Origin: Pseudomonas phage PCCM_PaP007
DNA: 60,349 nucleotides
Sequence record: PQ761517.1
Direction: 5' to 3' (one strand)
The translations under genes and the position numbers were made by a program. The notes under the pieces were generated by a model that saw nothing but the letters and a program-made list of their open reading frames with translations, did no database searches and was not told the origin of the DNA. This document shows, piece by piece, positions 7,489-11,923 of the stretch; positions within the stretch are counted from its first letter, which is position 1, and each line of letters begins with the position of its first letter.

Positions 7489-8268
7489 ATGCTTCTAAAC
7501 AACCAGATTCCGGTCAAAACCCTACCCAACGACGACATAGGCGTTGTTGAAGTACACAGTATCTTTGCCACCATTCAAGGTGAAGGACCGTTTGCCGGAA
7601 GGCCCGCAGTGTTTGTGCGTCTAAGTGGGTGCAATCTGCAATGCCCTAAGTGCGATACGGAATACACTGGGGGTAACAGCCTGACACCAAAGTCCGTGGT
7701 GCAGGCGGTACGCTTTGAAAACACCCGTGCGAACTACGGCGTTCATAACCCAACCGACCATGTACAGGTACCGGGCAAGGTACAAACCAAGCTGCTTCCC
7801 GCCAAGCTCCAGAACCGCCTTGTGGTTATCACTGGCGGCGAACCGATGCGGCAACCCATCGCACCCTTAGTCGAGGCACTTCTTGACGCGGGCATGCAGG
7901 TACAGATCGAAACCAACGGTACCTTGTACCGCGATCTACCCTACCATGACCCCAACCTGACCATTGTATGCAGTCCCAAGACCGGTAAGGTTAACCACAA
8001 ACTCAAACCGCACGTCCGACACTTGAAATACGTCGGCGCATTCGATAACCTGGCAGAGGACGGATTGCCGGTTAGTGCCCTGGACCACCCCAACGGCGGC
8101 TTGCTGGCTCGCCCCTGGAAAGACTTCAAGGGTACCATCTACCTGCAACCCGTCGACGAGAAAAACGAAGACCTGAACAAGGAAAACATGGACGCGGTGG
8201 TGCGGTCCTGCCAGCAGCATGGATACACCCTGTGCCTGCAAATGCACAAGATCATTGAGGTAGAATAA
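7489..8268 (+). CDS. queE: 7-carboxy-7-deazaguanine synthase (radical SAM)
   Basis: Carries IFATIQGEGPFAGRPAVFVRLSGCNLQCPKCDT, the QueE CxxxCxxC-type radical-SAM signature. ATG at 7489 follows the RBS gagga. Confidence 0.8.
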   Translation: MLLNNQIPVKTLPNDDIGVVEVHSIFATIQGEGPFAGRPAVFVRLSGCNLQCPKCDTEYTGGNSLTPKSVVQAVRFENTRANYGVHNPTDHVQVPGKVQTKLLPAKLQNRLVVITGGEPMRQPIAPLVEALLDAGMQVQIETNGTLYRDLPYHDPNLTIVCSPKTGKVNHKLKPHVRHLKYVGAFDNLAEDGLPVSALDHPNGGLLARPWKDFKGTIYLQPVDEKNEDLNKENMDAVVRSCQQHGYTLCLQMHKIIEVE

Positions 8269-8489
8269 TGCAAGCCCCAACCGCAGCAGAAGTTATGCAA
8301 AAAGAGATTGCACTACGTGACGTTCTCGTTCAGTCCGGTCACTGGAAGTGCTGTCTTAACTGTTGGCAATGGGGCGCACCCGAAAGTAACCCGAACCTTG
8401 CTCCACACTGCCGAAAGTACAGCATGATGCCGCCAGCTAAGATTCTGGTGCTCGGCTGTATCGAACACACCCCTGACATTCCTTTCTAG
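8268..8489 (+). CDS. small Cys-rich protein (73 aa) embedded in que cluster
   Basis: ORF is translationally coupled (TAATG) between queE and queC. It has 5 Cys (KCCLNC...HC...GC). Confidence 0.4.
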   Translation: MQAPTAAEVMQKEIALRDVLVQSGHWKCCLNCWQWGAPESNPNLAPHCRKYSMMPPAKILVLGCIEHTPDIPF

Positions 8490-8499
8490 GAGAACTATC

Positions 8500-9561
8500 A
8501 TGTCCAAGTCCCTTGTAGTCCTTTCTGGCGGCCAAGACAGCACCACCTGCCTGTTCGACGCTGTTAACAGGCTGGGTGTCGAGTCCGTTCGTGCCATCGC
8601 ATTCGACTACGGTCAGCGTCACGCTATCGAGCTTCGCAGCGCGGAGATCGTTGCCGAAATGGCGGGCGTGCAACTGGAAGTGATCGACGTGGAGGGCATC
8701 TTGCAAAGCACTAGCCCCCTCACGTCAGATACGCCACCCGACCAGTACGAAAGCTTCAGCCAGATGGAAGAAGTGGTTGGGAACAAGGTTGAAAAAACCT
8801 TTGTACCCATGCGCAACAGCCTGTTCCTTACCATCGCCGCCAACCGCGCTGTAGCCCTGGGTTGCACCACCGTGGTTACCGGCGTGTGCGGCCAGGACAA
8901 CGCCAATTACCCGGACTGTACGGAAGAGTTCATTAACAAGATCGAGACTTCCATCAACCAGTCCCTTGGCTTCATCCGCTACGAGGGGTCCAAGCGGGTA
9001 CTCGATGAGCGCTACATCACCATCAGCACCCCTCTGATGTTCATGAGCAAGGCCCAGTCCGTTGTGTTTGCCAGCCGCATCCCTGGGTGTATGAAGGCCC
9101 TGGCCTACAGCCACACCAGCTACGACGGTGAATATCCGCCCACAAAGAACAACCACAGCAATCTGCTCCGCGCACAAGGATTCCTGGAATCGGGGTTACC
9201 GGACCCCCTGGTGCTGCGCGGCTGGCTCGACGGCATGATGGTCCTGCCGACAACCAGCAACTACCTGAACGCATGGTATTACTGCGTCAGCTACGGCCTG
9301 GTTCCCGTGCACAGCATGTATGATCATGATCATGCCTACGAGCTCACAGCCGATTGGGGCGAGTGCTTCAAAAAAGGGGACATCGTGTGGAAGTACCTGC
9401 GCGACGATTTCGGCATGGGCGTGTCCAAGCTTGAATTGACGTCCGAGCCGCACATGAGCATCAGCCGCAACCCGGACGGCTCTAACTGTTTCTACACGCC
9501 CCCAACCAGTTTGCTGAAGCGCATCACTATCAGCGACGCCCTCAGCAAAATGCGCATTTAA
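8500..9561 (+). CDS. queC: QueC-like 7-cyano-7-deazaguanine synthase homolog with ~130-aa C-terminal extension
   Basis: N-terminal PP-loop SGGQDS matches the QueC SGGxDS motif. VVTGVCGQDNANYPDC is a Cys-rich zinc region. At 353 aa it is much longer than the ~220 aa typical of QueC. Confidence 0.75.
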   Translation: MSKSLVVLSGGQDSTTCLFDAVNRLGVESVRAIAFDYGQRHAIELRSAEIVAEMAGVQLEVIDVEGILQSTSPLTSDTPPDQYESFSQMEEVVGNKVEKTFVPMRNSLFLTIAANRAVALGCTTVVTGVCGQDNANYPDCTEEFINKIETSINQSLGFIRYEGSKRVLDERYITISTPLMFMSKAQSVVFASRIPGCMKALAYSHTSYDGEYPPTKNNHSNLLRAQGFLESGLPDPLVLRGWLDGMMVLPTTSNYLNAWYYCVSYGLVPVHSMYDHDHAYELTADWGECFKKGDIVWKYLRDDFGMGVSKLELTSEPHMSISRNPDGSNCFYTPPTSLLKRITISDALSKMRI

Positions 9562-9564
9562 CGC

Positions 9565-9593
9565 TTGTGACGACTGGGGTTAGTTGGTACAAT
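9565..9593 (+). promoter_or_regulatory. sigma70-like promoter TTGTGA-17-TACAAT overlapping a 9-bp-stem hairpin (9574..9601)
   Basis: Hexamers present. The inverted repeat ctggggtta/taaccccag places the -10 in its loop. Motif GGTTAG..GGTACAAT recurs at 10914 and 55995. Confidence 0.35.
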
Positions 9594-9618
9594 AACCCCA
9601 GTTAATCAGGAGACTGGT

Positions 9619-10279: not shown

Positions 10280-10288
10280 GGACAAGTA

Positions 10289-10912
10289 ATGAGCGACAAG
10301 TATTCAAAACTGGTTGAAGATTCCATCCGCAGCGTTTTGACGGAGGTGGACCCGACTTCCCTGATCAAGGTTCCCGATGATAGTTACATCACTGGCCGCC
10401 GCAAGGAACTGCGCCCCGGCCTGACCGACACCCCCAAGCGGGTTGCAAAGGCCTGGAAGCACTGGACCGGCGGTTACGATATCAACGTGGCGGAACTGCT
10501 GTCTGTCAAGTTCAAGGACGGCGGCGAAAGCTATGACCAAATGGTGCTGGTCAAGGACATCCCGCTGTACAGCAAGTGCGAGCACCACCTGGCGGACATC
10601 TTCGGAACCGCAACGGTCGCCTACATCCCCAATCCGGAACACGGTGTGGTTGGTCTGTCCAAGATCAGCCGGGTAGTTGACGCCTATGCACGTCGCCTTC
10701 AAACCCAGGAGCGCATCACCGTACAGGTGGCAGATGCCCTCGACCGGCACCTGGTCGCCGATGGCGTTGGTGTGGTTATCAAAGCTCGGCACATGTGCAT
10801 GGAAAGTCGCGGCCTGTGCCAGCAGGGCCACCACACGGTTACCGTGCAACTGCGCGGCCTGCTGCGCAATGACCCCGGCCTGCGACAGGAGTTCCTTTCC
10901 GTTGCACGCTAA
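10289..10912 (+). CDS. folE: GTP cyclohydrolase I
   Basis: Contains TPKRVAKAW, SKCEHHL and HMCMESRG, which are FolE active-site signatures. Confidence 0.8.
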   Translation: MSDKYSKLVEDSIRSVLTEVDPTSLIKVPDDSYITGRRKELRPGLTDTPKRVAKAWKHWTGGYDINVAELLSVKFKDGGESYDQMVLVKDIPLYSKCEHHLADIFGTATVAYIPNPEHGVVGLSKISRVVDAYARRLQTQERITVQVADALDRHLVADGVGVVIKARHMCMESRGLCQQGHHTVTVQLRGLLRNDPGLRQEFLSVAR

Positions 10913-10930
10913 CTGGGGTTAGGGTACAAT
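10902..10930 (+). promoter_or_regulatory. sigma70-like promoter TTGCAC-17-TACAAT
   Basis: Overlaps the folE stop. Spacer is gctaactggggttaggg. Upstream of dpdA. Confidence 0.35.
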
Positions 10931-10962
10931 AGGGGCCTACTTCGGTACGCCCCTTTCTTTTG
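10931..10962 (+). terminator. hairpin plus T-run (possible terminator/attenuator)
   Basis: Stem ggggc/gcccc with a 12-nt loop, followed by tttcttttg. Confidence 0.35.
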
Positions 10963-10984
10963 ACTGATAGTAAAGCGGTGAGGT

Positions 10985-11923
10985 ATGGCAAACAACACTG
11001 GCGTAAACGTCTTTCTTGCGGCGGTCTACACCAACAACTACATGCGCGGGCAGAAGCTGCACGAGAACCTGAATGACCACGAAAAGGCTATCACGCGCAA
11101 CCTGCCCAACATCCTTGAATCTTGGCACTACGTGGGCGCGCAGCGCTACGTGGACCAAATGCGCGCAGACGGGGCCAAGGTATTCCTGGACTCCGGGGCC
11201 TTCTCCGCATGGACCCTGGGAGCCACAATGAGCCTCCCGGACTACTGCGAGTACATCAAAACCAACATGGACATCCTGCGGGTTGAGGACGGCGACGTCA
11301 TGGCGTCTGTACTGGACGGTATCGGCGACCCACTGCAAACCTGGCGCAACCAGTACGAGATGGAACTGCGCGGCGTGCGCCCGCTACCATGCTTCCACTT
11401 CGGGGAACCGGAGGAATATCTGGAGCATTACGTCAAGAACTATAACTACATCACCATCGGCGGGATGGTTGGCAAGACGCCCGAAACACTTACCCGGTGG
11501 TTGGACCGCATGTGGGACCGCCACATGGTGGACGGATCTGGCAGGGCTAAGATTAAGGTACACGGCTTTGGTCTTACCTCTATCCCGCTCATGGAGCGCT
11601 ACCCCTGGTACAGTTGTGACTCCTCGTCCTGGATCCAAGCAACGGCGTTTGGTACGGTAGTCAGCCCGAAATTCGGCCCGCTTCGAGTATCGGACAAATC
11701 ACCCAGCCGGCATGACGCCGGACAGCATGTGTGCAACCTCAGCCAGCAAGAGCAAGAAGCCGTGTTCCGGCATTTTGAGCAGGCGGGATTCACGTACGAA
11801 AGGCTGTCTACGGTGTACGAAAGCCGGGCAGCTTTTAACCTGTGGGCGTATACTGTCATCCAGGGTCTAGTTAACGCTAAAAACGACGGCGTGTTCCGCC
11901 AACGCATACAGGAGTTATTCTAA
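10985..11923 (+). CDS. dpdA: DNA-guanine transglycosylase DpdA (TGT-like)
   Basis: VFLDSGAFS resembles the TGT DSGGF catalytic motif. ITIGGMVG and YSCDSS are TGT-like. Sits adjacent to the complete preQ0 pathway. Confidence 0.7.
   Translation: MANNTGVNVFLAAVYTNNYMRGQKLHENLNDHEKAITRNLPNILESWHYVGAQRYVDQMRADGAKVFLDSGAFSAWTLGATMSLPDYCEYIKTNMDILRVEDGDVMASVLDGIGDPLQTWRNQYEMELRGVRPLPCFHFGEPEEYLEHYVKNYNYITIGGMVGKTPETLTRWLDRMWDRHMVDGSGRAKIKVHGFGLTSIPLMERYPWYSCDSSSWIQATAFGTVVSPKFGPLRVSDKSPSRHDAGQHVCNLSQQEQEAVFRHFEQAGFTYERLSTVYESRAAFNLWAYTVIQGLVNAKNDGVFRQRIQELF

Follow-up and report, generated by a model that had tools for sequence, protein, structure and literature searches.

The window analyzed here, a stretch of 60,349 nucleotides, carries the known queE-queC-queD-folE-dpdA cluster in its replication module and very probably uses it to insert preQ0 into the phage DNA by a system of the type found in phage Iggy (Iggyvirus iggy, MN029011; Olsen et al., NAR 2023, PMC10484667). 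The cluster, its dPreQ0 product, the GA target motif and the protective effect of the modification are already known, having been published for Iggy in 2023. In the proposed pathway, FolE would convert GTP to H2NTP, QueD would make CPH4 and the radical-SAM enzyme QueE would make CDG, which QueC would convert via ADG to preQ0, using ATP and ammonia. After replication, DpdA would exchange guanine in duplex DNA for this preQ0. The cluster contains the following features:

7489..8268, + strand: queE, radical-SAM 7-carboxy-7-deazaguanine (CDG) synthase, 259 aa
8268..8489, + strand: orf73, small Cys-rich protein
8500..9561, + strand: queC, preQ0 synthase homologue, 353 aa
9265..9558, + strand: C-terminal extension of QueC, residues 256–353
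9619..9816, + strand: orf65, small hypothetical protein between queC and queD
9821..10279, + strand: queD, 6-carboxy-tetrahydropterin (CPH4) synthase homologue, 152 aa
10289..10912, + strand: folE, GTP cyclohydrolase I, 207 aa
10985..11923, + strand: dpdA, DNA guanine transglycosylase of the DpdA1 subfamily, 312 aa

Phage genome and organization of the cluster

By nucleotide comparison, the window is the whole ~60 kb genome of a Pseudomonas aeruginosa siphophage that belongs to the genus Iggyvirus in the Queuovirinae. The DNA is 93–96% identical to that of phages Iggy, HTN2 and Knedl, and the first 25 kb match Iggyvirus relatives with 93–96% identity over at least 94% (95.4% to Iggy). Such nucleotide similarity, together with colinearity, assigns the phage to this genus. 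Iggy and the window are colinear over the full length, the one being circularly permuted and inverted with respect to the other; identity is 85–97%, and five segments of 95–1313 nt have no match. One block (43732–44244) is just 72% identical, and the sole long segment lacking Iggy homology (16742..18054) falls within a 436-aa ORF that is the counterpart of Iggy gp37. The two phages are different isolates, ~95% identical overall, and their few non-homologous segments lie outside the cluster. Neither tRNA genes nor Rfam matches were found in the window.

In Iggy, the cluster is annotated as QueE, hypothetical, QueC, hypothetical, QueD, FolE and DpdA, with the same gene order, gene lengths and two intervening small ORFs as in the window and with 93.3% identical DNA. 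Its position is also the same, between a helicase and the genes for beta clamp and DNA polymerase. The sequence-only reading had described five contiguous plus-strand genes; their coordinates, strand and families stand, but orf73 and orf65 interrupt the series. The genes are tightly spaced, each is preceded by a Shine-Dalgarno-like sequence, and no plus-strand terminator was found in the cluster region.

The start of orf73 overlaps the queE stop. Its product is 100% identical to the Iggy counterpart, matches PHROG 23504 (unknown function, E 2e-13) and contains the conserved residues C29, C32, C48, C64 and H67. Related metagenomic phages keep the gene between queE and queC, and in phages XAJ2 and Halfdan homologues lie between helicase and beta clamp in a region devoid of que genes; orf73 probably belongs to the replication module rather than to the biosynthetic pathway. 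The second small ORF, orf65, is 89–92% identical to its Iggyvirus homologues and has no match in Pfam, NCBIfam or PHROG. Both are annotated as hypothetical in Iggy, orf65 also in PBPA162 and HTN2.

The same cluster and gene order are found in the Iggyvirus PBPA162 lineage (PBPA162, Pa-V, Pa-X, Pa-oumiga). There, DpdA is 99.4% identical to the window protein and QueE, QueD and FolE are 90–95% identical, whereas the orf73-queC segment is another allele (72.6% and 71.4% protein identity, 46% in the QueC extension); the window carries the Iggy allele. [quoted passage not shown] No orf73 homologue was found in CAjan, which additionally encodes the transporter YhhQ; 9g has a Gat-QueC.

Enzymes of preQ0 synthesis and the unusual QueC

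Each of the four enzymes matches profiles of its family. FolE, 94% identical to its Iggy homologue, matches Pfam (E 4e-59), exceeds the cut-off of the FolE subfamily model NCBIfam NF006825 (203.8 bits against 174) and contains the zinc and catalytic motifs of the family (CEHH at 97, HMCMESRG, i.e. HxCMxxRG, at 168). For queE, the mechanical ORF begins at TTG 7474; the ATG at 7489 agrees with the Iggy annotation (259 aa). QueE has the CX3CX2C motif and SAM-binding motif of its family, with C48–C55 (CNLQCPKC, residues 48–55) and GGEP at 116. It matches five NCBIfam QueE models (E 1e-16 to 2e-28, all under the equivalog cut-offs), PHROG 2076 (E 3e-53) and the PDB QueE 6nhl (E 5e-17), and shares 89% identity with the Iggy protein, from which it diverges most in a patch spanning residues 64–107.

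QueD, 90% identical to the Iggy protein, matches Pfam PTPS (E 1e-17; 64.8 bits, cut-off 22.4), PHROG 2389 (E 2e-43) and the PDB CPH4 synthase 7v0f (E 4e-5), and scores 41 bits with the NCBIfam QueD model, under its cut-off of 89. It retains the catalytic residues Cys31 and His35, but two of the three His that canonically bind zinc are missing: the motif CSFLHGY has CxxxHGY instead of CxxxHGH, and the first zinc-binding His is replaced by Phe, a variant common to the whole related phage clade.

The product of 8500..9561 clearly belongs to the QueC family (Pfam PF06508, E 6e-43, 147 bits, cut-off 22; PDB QueC 2pg3 and 3bl5, E 1e-27 and 1e-24), as the earlier reading had proposed subject to a profile search. 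With TIGR00364 it reaches 140.8 bits, just under the equivalog cut-off of 150.3. Its core spans residues ~1–255 and carries the PP-loop SGGQDS at residues 9–14. The four-Cys zinc site (Cx8CxxCxxC), conserved in QueC of E. coli, B. subtilis and CAjan, is absent; S207, T215, N218 and N221 stand at the positions of the Cys tetrad in E. coli and CAjan. CAjan QueC is a canonical zinc-binding protein of 240 aa, 38% identical to the window protein. The same holds throughout the large subfamily that includes Iggy-type QueC and in which every one of the four zinc-binding cysteines has been lost; of 7410 QueC-family matches at E≤1e-5, 120 were listed, most of them ~60% identical over the core. Metal-site loss in this clade is seen in both QueC and QueD.

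The C-terminal extension has a conserved core at residues ~292–347 (nt 9373–9540); among the matches listed, only the Iggyvirus proteins and two metagenomic QueC sequences (P0006 and P0007) carry it. It matches PHROG 7900 (E 6e-9), and by tblastn its core is 39% identical to gp31 of phage N4, a 77-aa protein of unknown function, and to gp31 relatives (E 1e-4 to 2e-4). If the extension is read as a module, phages also carry a similar one as a stand-alone protein of 77–81 aa. The predicted structure of the extension is of low confidence (pLDDT 41.6). The Iggy authors noted the long QueC and found no match for the extension region (PMC10484667).

We consider it rather unlikely, but not negligible, that a zinc-less QueC with a gp31-like extension does more than make preQ0. 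The extension may tether QueC to DpdA or the replisome and channel preQ0 to new DNA, or it may be a module in its own right, with a role in anti-defence or regulation. Separately, the loss of metal sites would define QueC and QueD variants; if true, these would be metal-independent or differently metallated forms of two textbook enzymes of the queuosine pathway.

The missing ligands also bear on the source of preQ0. Phage QueC, and perhaps QueD, might be impaired by their loss, in which case the Que pathway of the host would supply most of the preQ0, and DpdA alone would be essential for modification. QatC, a member of the QueC family, loses much of its function when its four Cys are mutated, and some phages indeed encode only DpdA and rely on their host (PMC10484667). 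Nevertheless, we regard such an impairment as very improbable, given the size and good conservation of the zinc-less QueC subfamily, whose intact PP-loop and core motifs argue for selection on activity. In addition, gene order is maintained throughout the Queuovirinae, and much preQ0 must be needed if several thousand sites in each genome copy are modified almost to saturation. Because the QueC zinc site and the QueD zinc His are missing, the Que pathway of the host P. aeruginosa may still supply part of the preQ0. In the pathway outlined above, QueC of the window phage would convert CDG to preQ0; the support for this step is indirect and comes from Iggy, whose QueC is 97.5% identical and whose DNA carries dPreQ0, perhaps with a contribution from the host.

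The DNA transglycosylase DpdA

The dpdA gene lies directly 3′ of queE, queC, queD and folE on the same strand, in association with the preQ0 genes. The protein has no match in Pfam, NCBIfam or PDB sequences, a profile search of the PDB included, but matches PHROG 887 (E 4e-86), and a fold search places its model, a TGT-type TIM barrel, in the TGT/DpdA superfamily. The structure model is of moderate quality (pLDDT 65, TM ~0.45). By tblastn, DpdA is 71.9% identical to the CAjan enzyme over 98% of its length and 67.6% identical to that of 9g over 99%, and membership in the DpdA1 subfamily rests on these sequence identities. The placement of 10985..11923 in the TGT/DpdA family, which had been proposed for confirmation by profile search, found no backing in the Pfam, NCBIfam and PDB profiles; it is kept because of the fold comparison and the close homology to characterized DpdA1 enzymes.

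The motif VFLDSGAFS is present and contains D69. In a local and weak hhalign match (E 0.032), DSGAF is aligned with the motif TDSGGF of E. coli TGT, which we take to contain the catalytic Asp89. The three residues D69, D111 and D212 are unchanged across 20 homologues. DpdA would act by a TGT-type double displacement with D212 as the putative nucleophile, D69 as general acid/base and D111 in base recognition; these roles are taken from the structure and mutagenesis of a bacterial DpdA (PMC10164549), with D111 and D212 assigned by motif and position.

Bacterial DpdA (Salmonella Montevideo, PDB 7ui4) and tRNA-guanine transglycosylases are at most 18% identical to the window protein, which is shorter than bacterial DpdA (312 against 413 aa) and lacks its large Ins8 insertion and its CxCxxC...H structural zinc site. 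The four Cys present (88, 136, 211 and 250) do not form a CxCxxC pattern, as TGT and bacterial DpdA do. The lack of this site seems characteristic of the short DpdA1 proteins of phages but does not define DpdA1. Bacterial DpdA requires the ATPase DpdB, whereas the window encodes no DpdB.

DpdA is 99.4% identical to its Iggy counterpart; the two substitutions, H26Y and K229Q, do not fall on invariant columns. At this level of identity the transfer of function from Iggy seems safe, and we infer that the window DpdA inserts preQ0 into DNA. With five gene families confirmed, the proposal of a GTP-to-preQ0 route combined with a DNA transglycosylase is borne out and agrees with the Iggy experiments.

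Product, target motif and protection

LC-MS/MS of Iggy DNA, with standards that included dADG, dG+, dPreQ1, dCDG and dQ, detected dPreQ0 only, with 16.5–16.9% of G replaced (PMC10484667). The sequence-only reading had expected dPreQ0 or dADG, or a derivative arising through the QueC extension. The first of these is supported by the Iggy data. For another product to arise, the reaction of the zinc-less QueC could end with ADG, as has been proposed for QueC* in Campylobacter phages, or its extension could add further chemistry. QueC homologues with altered outcome do exist, Gat-QueC leading to dG+ and QueC* being proposed to yield ADG (PMC10484667), and the window QueC combines the loss of all four zinc-binding cysteines with a ~100-aa extension of unknown function. 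However, we find dADG or another derivative highly improbable, and extension chemistry unsupported, because Iggy DNA is strictly dPreQ0 despite a long QueC that is 97.5% identical, differing at 9 of 353 positions, seven of them in the extension. Moreover, the annotation of the near-identical Iggy genome includes no gene for an amidotransferase (Gat), QueF or ArcS, and none was found in the window segments without Iggy homology, in line with the earlier remark that no QueF-like nitrile reductase is visible. A QueC-like and TGT-like pair acting on protein or tRNA instead of DNA, as in Cap9/Cap10 of type IV CBASS, QatC (protein deazaguanylation) or classical tRNA TGT, can practically be dismissed, since dPreQ0 has already been detected in the virion DNA of Iggy.

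GA was the only motif that nanopore data revealed for Iggy, and at least 97% of its occurrences were modified (PMC10484667). By homology, the target in the window phage would be the G of the dinucleotide GA, modified near saturation, with ~17% of the genomic G present as dPreQ0. In the window, 17.1% of G fall in GA (5806 sites), and placement of dPreQ0 at GA is the likely outcome by analogy. Among the DpdA1 prototypes, 9g carries dG+ and CAjan dPreQ0, the CAjan enzyme targeting GGC besides GA (PMC10484667).

In vitro, Iggy DNA is protected from both restriction enzymes and Cas9 (PMC10484667). [quoted passage not shown]

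The 7-deazaguanine cluster and the genome that carries it

The sequence-only reading had proposed five + strand genes for a phage-encoded 7-deazaguanine DNA modification pathway. All five are present as open reading frames at the proposed coordinates, together with two small ORFs inside the cluster:

7489..8268, + strand, queE
8268..8489, + strand, orf73, a small ORF whose start overlaps the queE stop
8500..9561, + strand, queC, encoding a QueC-like protein of 353 aa
9619..9816, + strand, orf65, a small ORF within the cluster
9821..10279, + strand, queD
10289..10912, + strand, folE
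10985..11923, + strand, dpdA

The PHROGs assignments are consistent for all five cluster genes, with 10985..11923 listed as ‘queuine tRNA-ribosyltransferase’ (phrog_887, 4e-86). FolE matches Pfam GTP_cyclohydroI (4e-59), exceeds the NCBIfam FolE subfamily cut-offs and carries the motifs CEHH at 97 and HMCMESRG at 168, while QueD matches Pfam PTPS (1e-17). QueE is recognized by five NCBIfam QueE models (best 2e-28) and shows CX3CX2C at 48-55 and GGEP at 116. The proposed membership of 8500..9561 in the QueC family was borne out by a Pfam match of 6e-43, sequence matches to solved QueC structures and an SGGQDS motif at residues 9-14. Solved structures of QueE and CPH4 synthase in the PDB were matched as well. 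The dpdA product contains DSGAF at 69-73. Throughout the window, no preQ1 riboswitch or other RNA element was matched in Rfam at gathering thresholds and no tRNA genes were found; a promoter and terminator scan of 6000-13600 gave results no better than shuffled sequence.

At the DNA level, the cluster shares 93.3-93.4% identity with Iggy and vB_PaeS_HTN2, 93.1% with Knedl and 87-88% with PBPA162, Pa-V, Pa-X and Pa-oumiga, all of them Pseudomonas phages. These phages also match the initial 25 kb of the window, at 93-96% identity over at least 94% of that stretch. In a local BLAST against the complete Iggy record, the window is circularly permuted and in reverse orientation. Because it is colinear with the whole of that record but for five short segments without homology, the window is a complete Iggyvirus genome of roughly 60.3 kb. 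The gene content and order of the cluster recur in the Iggy annotation (QueE, hypothetical, QueC, hypothetical, QueD, FolE, DpdA), placed between a helicase and a beta clamp plus DNA polymerase. Protein identity to Iggy is 100% for orf73, 99.4% for DpdA, 97.5% for QueC, 93.7% for FolE, 90.1% for QueD and 89.2% for QueE.

The 28 differences between the two QueE proteins are unevenly spread: 17 cluster at residues 64-107 of the 7489..8268 product, between the Fe-S cluster motif and GGEP, where the DNA is 78-86% identical compared with more than 96% nearby. The sole long window segment without Iggy homology, 16742..18054, covers the distal part of a 436-aa ORF (16491..17801) that is the counterpart of Iggy gp37, annotated ‘peptide chain release factor 1’. 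Part of this region (17280..17613) has close counterparts, about 94-95% identical, among the hypothetical genes of unrelated 88-kb Pseudomonas phages (Epa and KPP10 types), which points to mosaic exchange between groups of phages. A SLOG-family gene (13108..13476; YspA/cpYpsA-related, Pfam YAcAr, 3e-16) lies between the beta clamp and DNA polymerase genes; of two related metagenomic phage contexts examined, one (L005) has it in the corresponding position.

DpdA and the expected modification

Profile searches failed to place the product of 10985..11923 in the TGT/DpdA family, to which it had been assigned from sequence motifs: Pfam gave no match at all, with E values as high as 10 allowed, NCBIfam gave none either, and neither the single sequence (phmmer) nor a 20-sequence HMM found one in the PDB. 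Comparison of the DpdA alignment with E. coli TGT by hhalign yielded an 18-residue local match at DSGxF only (E 0.032), which pairs FLDSGAFSA with ILTDSGGFQ. An AlphaFold2 model (pLDDT 65, pTM 0.62), in turn, had 127 Foldseek matches in the PDB at E ≤ 0.001, the top 50 all being bacterial TGT, and the DpdA1 prototypes, from CAjan and 9g, share 71.9% and 67.6% identity with the protein. Since sequence profiles find nothing, the placement as TGT/DpdA rests on the fold search and these close homologues, which settle it.

In Salmonella DpdA, Asp95, Asp130 and Asp256 as well as a gating Phe99 have been described (PMC10164549). The likely counterparts in the phage protein, all of them invariant, are D69 as general acid/base, D111 for base recognition and D212 as nucleophile, and F73 would correspond to the gating Phe99. 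Unlike TGTs and bacterial DpdA, this phage DpdA has no CxCxxC...H zinc site.

Modification of DNA with 7-deazaguanines is an important phage counter-defence, which blocks many restriction enzymes and also, where the PAM carries the modification, Cas9. It is relevant to the choice of therapeutic Pseudomonas phages and to sequencing and cloning of their DNA. Reading the cluster as such a system is correct in its essentials, but the system is not new: it has been characterized experimentally in the near-identical phage Iggy (Olsen et al., NAR 2023, PMC10484667). LC-MS/MS of Iggy DNA against dADG, dQ, dPreQ0, dPreQ1, dG+ and dCDG standards detected dPreQ0 only, with about 16.5% of G substituted. 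Nanopore sequencing of native versus amplified DNA revealed a single motif, GA, of which at least 97% of sites were modified, and the DNA withstood selected restriction enzymes and, where the PAM G carried the modification, Cas9 (PMC10484667).

For the phage studied here, we infer that both product and target are those of Iggy, because the DpdA proteins of the two phages are separated by just two substitutions, H26Y and K229Q, at positions that vary among 20 homologues, and its QueC differs from that of Iggy at nine positions, seven of which lie in the C-terminal extension. The Iggy annotation contains no QueF, Gat, ArcS or YhhQ. No other derivative-making genes were found in this annotation or in the window-specific segments, which are short apart from the one inside the gp37-like ORF, in agreement with the initial statement that no QueF-like gene is visible. 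The window has 5806 GA sites on both strands, corresponding to 17.1% of all G. Most likely, the DNA of this phage thus carries dPreQ0 at GA, at about 17% of G, and the practical value for this record is its annotation as an Iggyvirus with that expected modification. As a consequence, restriction sites that contain GA may be refractory to cleavage, and nanopore base-calling would be degraded. Over the whole window, GA/TC, the DpdA target motif, is under-represented (observed/expected 0.78, the lowest of ten dinucleotides checked), which agrees with the remark of the Iggy authors on comparatively few GA sites (PMC10484667). Biologically, the system was already known and nothing new is added to the 2023 work on Iggy; the residual curiosities, all minor, are the QueC extension and the absent metal ligands in QueC and QueD.

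Unusual features of QueC and QueD

About 7400 database proteins match the QueC-like protein at E ≤ 1e-5. Of the 120 matches listed, most have a length of 250-290 aa, with about 60% identity over residues 1-255, and the full length is common only to Knedl, PBPA162 and two metagenomic proteins. The C-terminal extension (residues 256-353), which the sequence-only reading had flagged as unusual, was already remarked on by the Iggy authors, who reported ‘no clear match’ for it (PMC10484667). Within it, some 55 residues form a conserved core (about 292-347; window 9373..9540). This core matches PHROG 7900 (6e-9), and in tblastn it aligns with a 77-aa protein of phage N4, gp31, and with relatives of gp31 at 39% identity and E values between 1e-4 and 2e-4. 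The resemblance to gp31 is the sole addition to the published account of the extension. Stand-alone gp31-like proteins occur in N4-like and other phages.

Queried alone, the extension had no match in a word-indexed homologue search, and an exhaustive HMMER search gave only seven weak matches: an 81-aa stand-alone protein, a 406-aa protein and five proteins of 1261-4950 aa with short matches in multiple stretches. Four of these five large proteins were scanned against Pfam, which identified three as Ig- or cadherin-repeat and one as NHL/beta-propeller repeat proteins. We rejected the repeat proteins as homologues, the resemblance being at motif level only (GD.V...D.G...NPDG..YTP). An AlphaFold2 model of the extension from a six-sequence alignment was unusable (pLDDT 41.6).

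When aligned with the E. coli and CAjan proteins, the large Iggy-type QueC subfamily proves to have lost all four zinc-binding cysteines, with S207, T215, N218 and N221 in their place; the surrounding motif, AYSHTSYDG.YPPT..NHSNLLRAQGF, is conserved (window 8500..9264, especially residues 204-228). CAjan QueC keeps the cysteines. Besides its phage members, this zinc-less subfamily has one in a Microvirga genomic island, with QueE and QueD as neighbours. The cultured phages with the zinc-less type are those of Iggyvirus and, at about 50% identity, phages of Rhizobium, Dinoroseobacter and Stenotrophomonas. The loss appears notable because mutation of the four cysteines strongly lowers the function of QatC, a QueC-family defence protein (PMC13639016). 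It is nevertheless a trait of the subfamily, and Iggy makes dPreQ0 nonetheless.

QueD retains only one of the three canonical metal ligands. The phage clade has CSFLHGY instead of the canonical CxxxHGH (9821..10279, residues 18-37), and the first zinc-binding His position is occupied by Phe (SCCFRQ versus EAAHRL), a variant common to related phages; Microvirga and E. coli QueD are canonical. Neighbouring Cys and His residues could stand in for the absent ligands.

The small ORFs of the cluster

For orf65, searches of NCBIfam, PHROG and Pfam detected no relatives beyond the genus. The orf73 product has conserved residues C29, C32, C48, C64 and H67 (CCxxC...C...C..H), and related metagenomic phages likewise have the gene between queE and queC. 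It co-varies with queC: the two proteins are 72.6% and 71.4% identical to those of PBPA162, of the Iggyvirus lineage of that name, compared with 90-99% for the flanking genes. The position between queE and queC, its conservation in related metagenomic phages and the allele block shared with queC made it attractive to regard orf73, with its conserved Cys and His residues, as the source in trans of the zinc module that QueC lacks. We rejected this idea, since homologues in XAJ2 and Halfdan, the two contexts examined, lie in a helicase to DNA polymerase region without que genes, and the Microvirga island with its zinc-less QueC has no adjacent orf73 homologue. In XAJ2, Halfdan, BcepGomr and phiAxp-1-like phages, the homologues directly follow the helicase. 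orf73 is probably a zinc-binding protein of the replication module, and it looks like a replication gene around which the que genes have been arranged.

The window has the Iggy allele of the orf73-queC block, and this allelic pattern suggests recombination within the genus. In a DNA comparison of 8200..9600 with PBPA162 (L002), the orf73-queC segment is about 64-83% identical and the flanking genes 85-100%.
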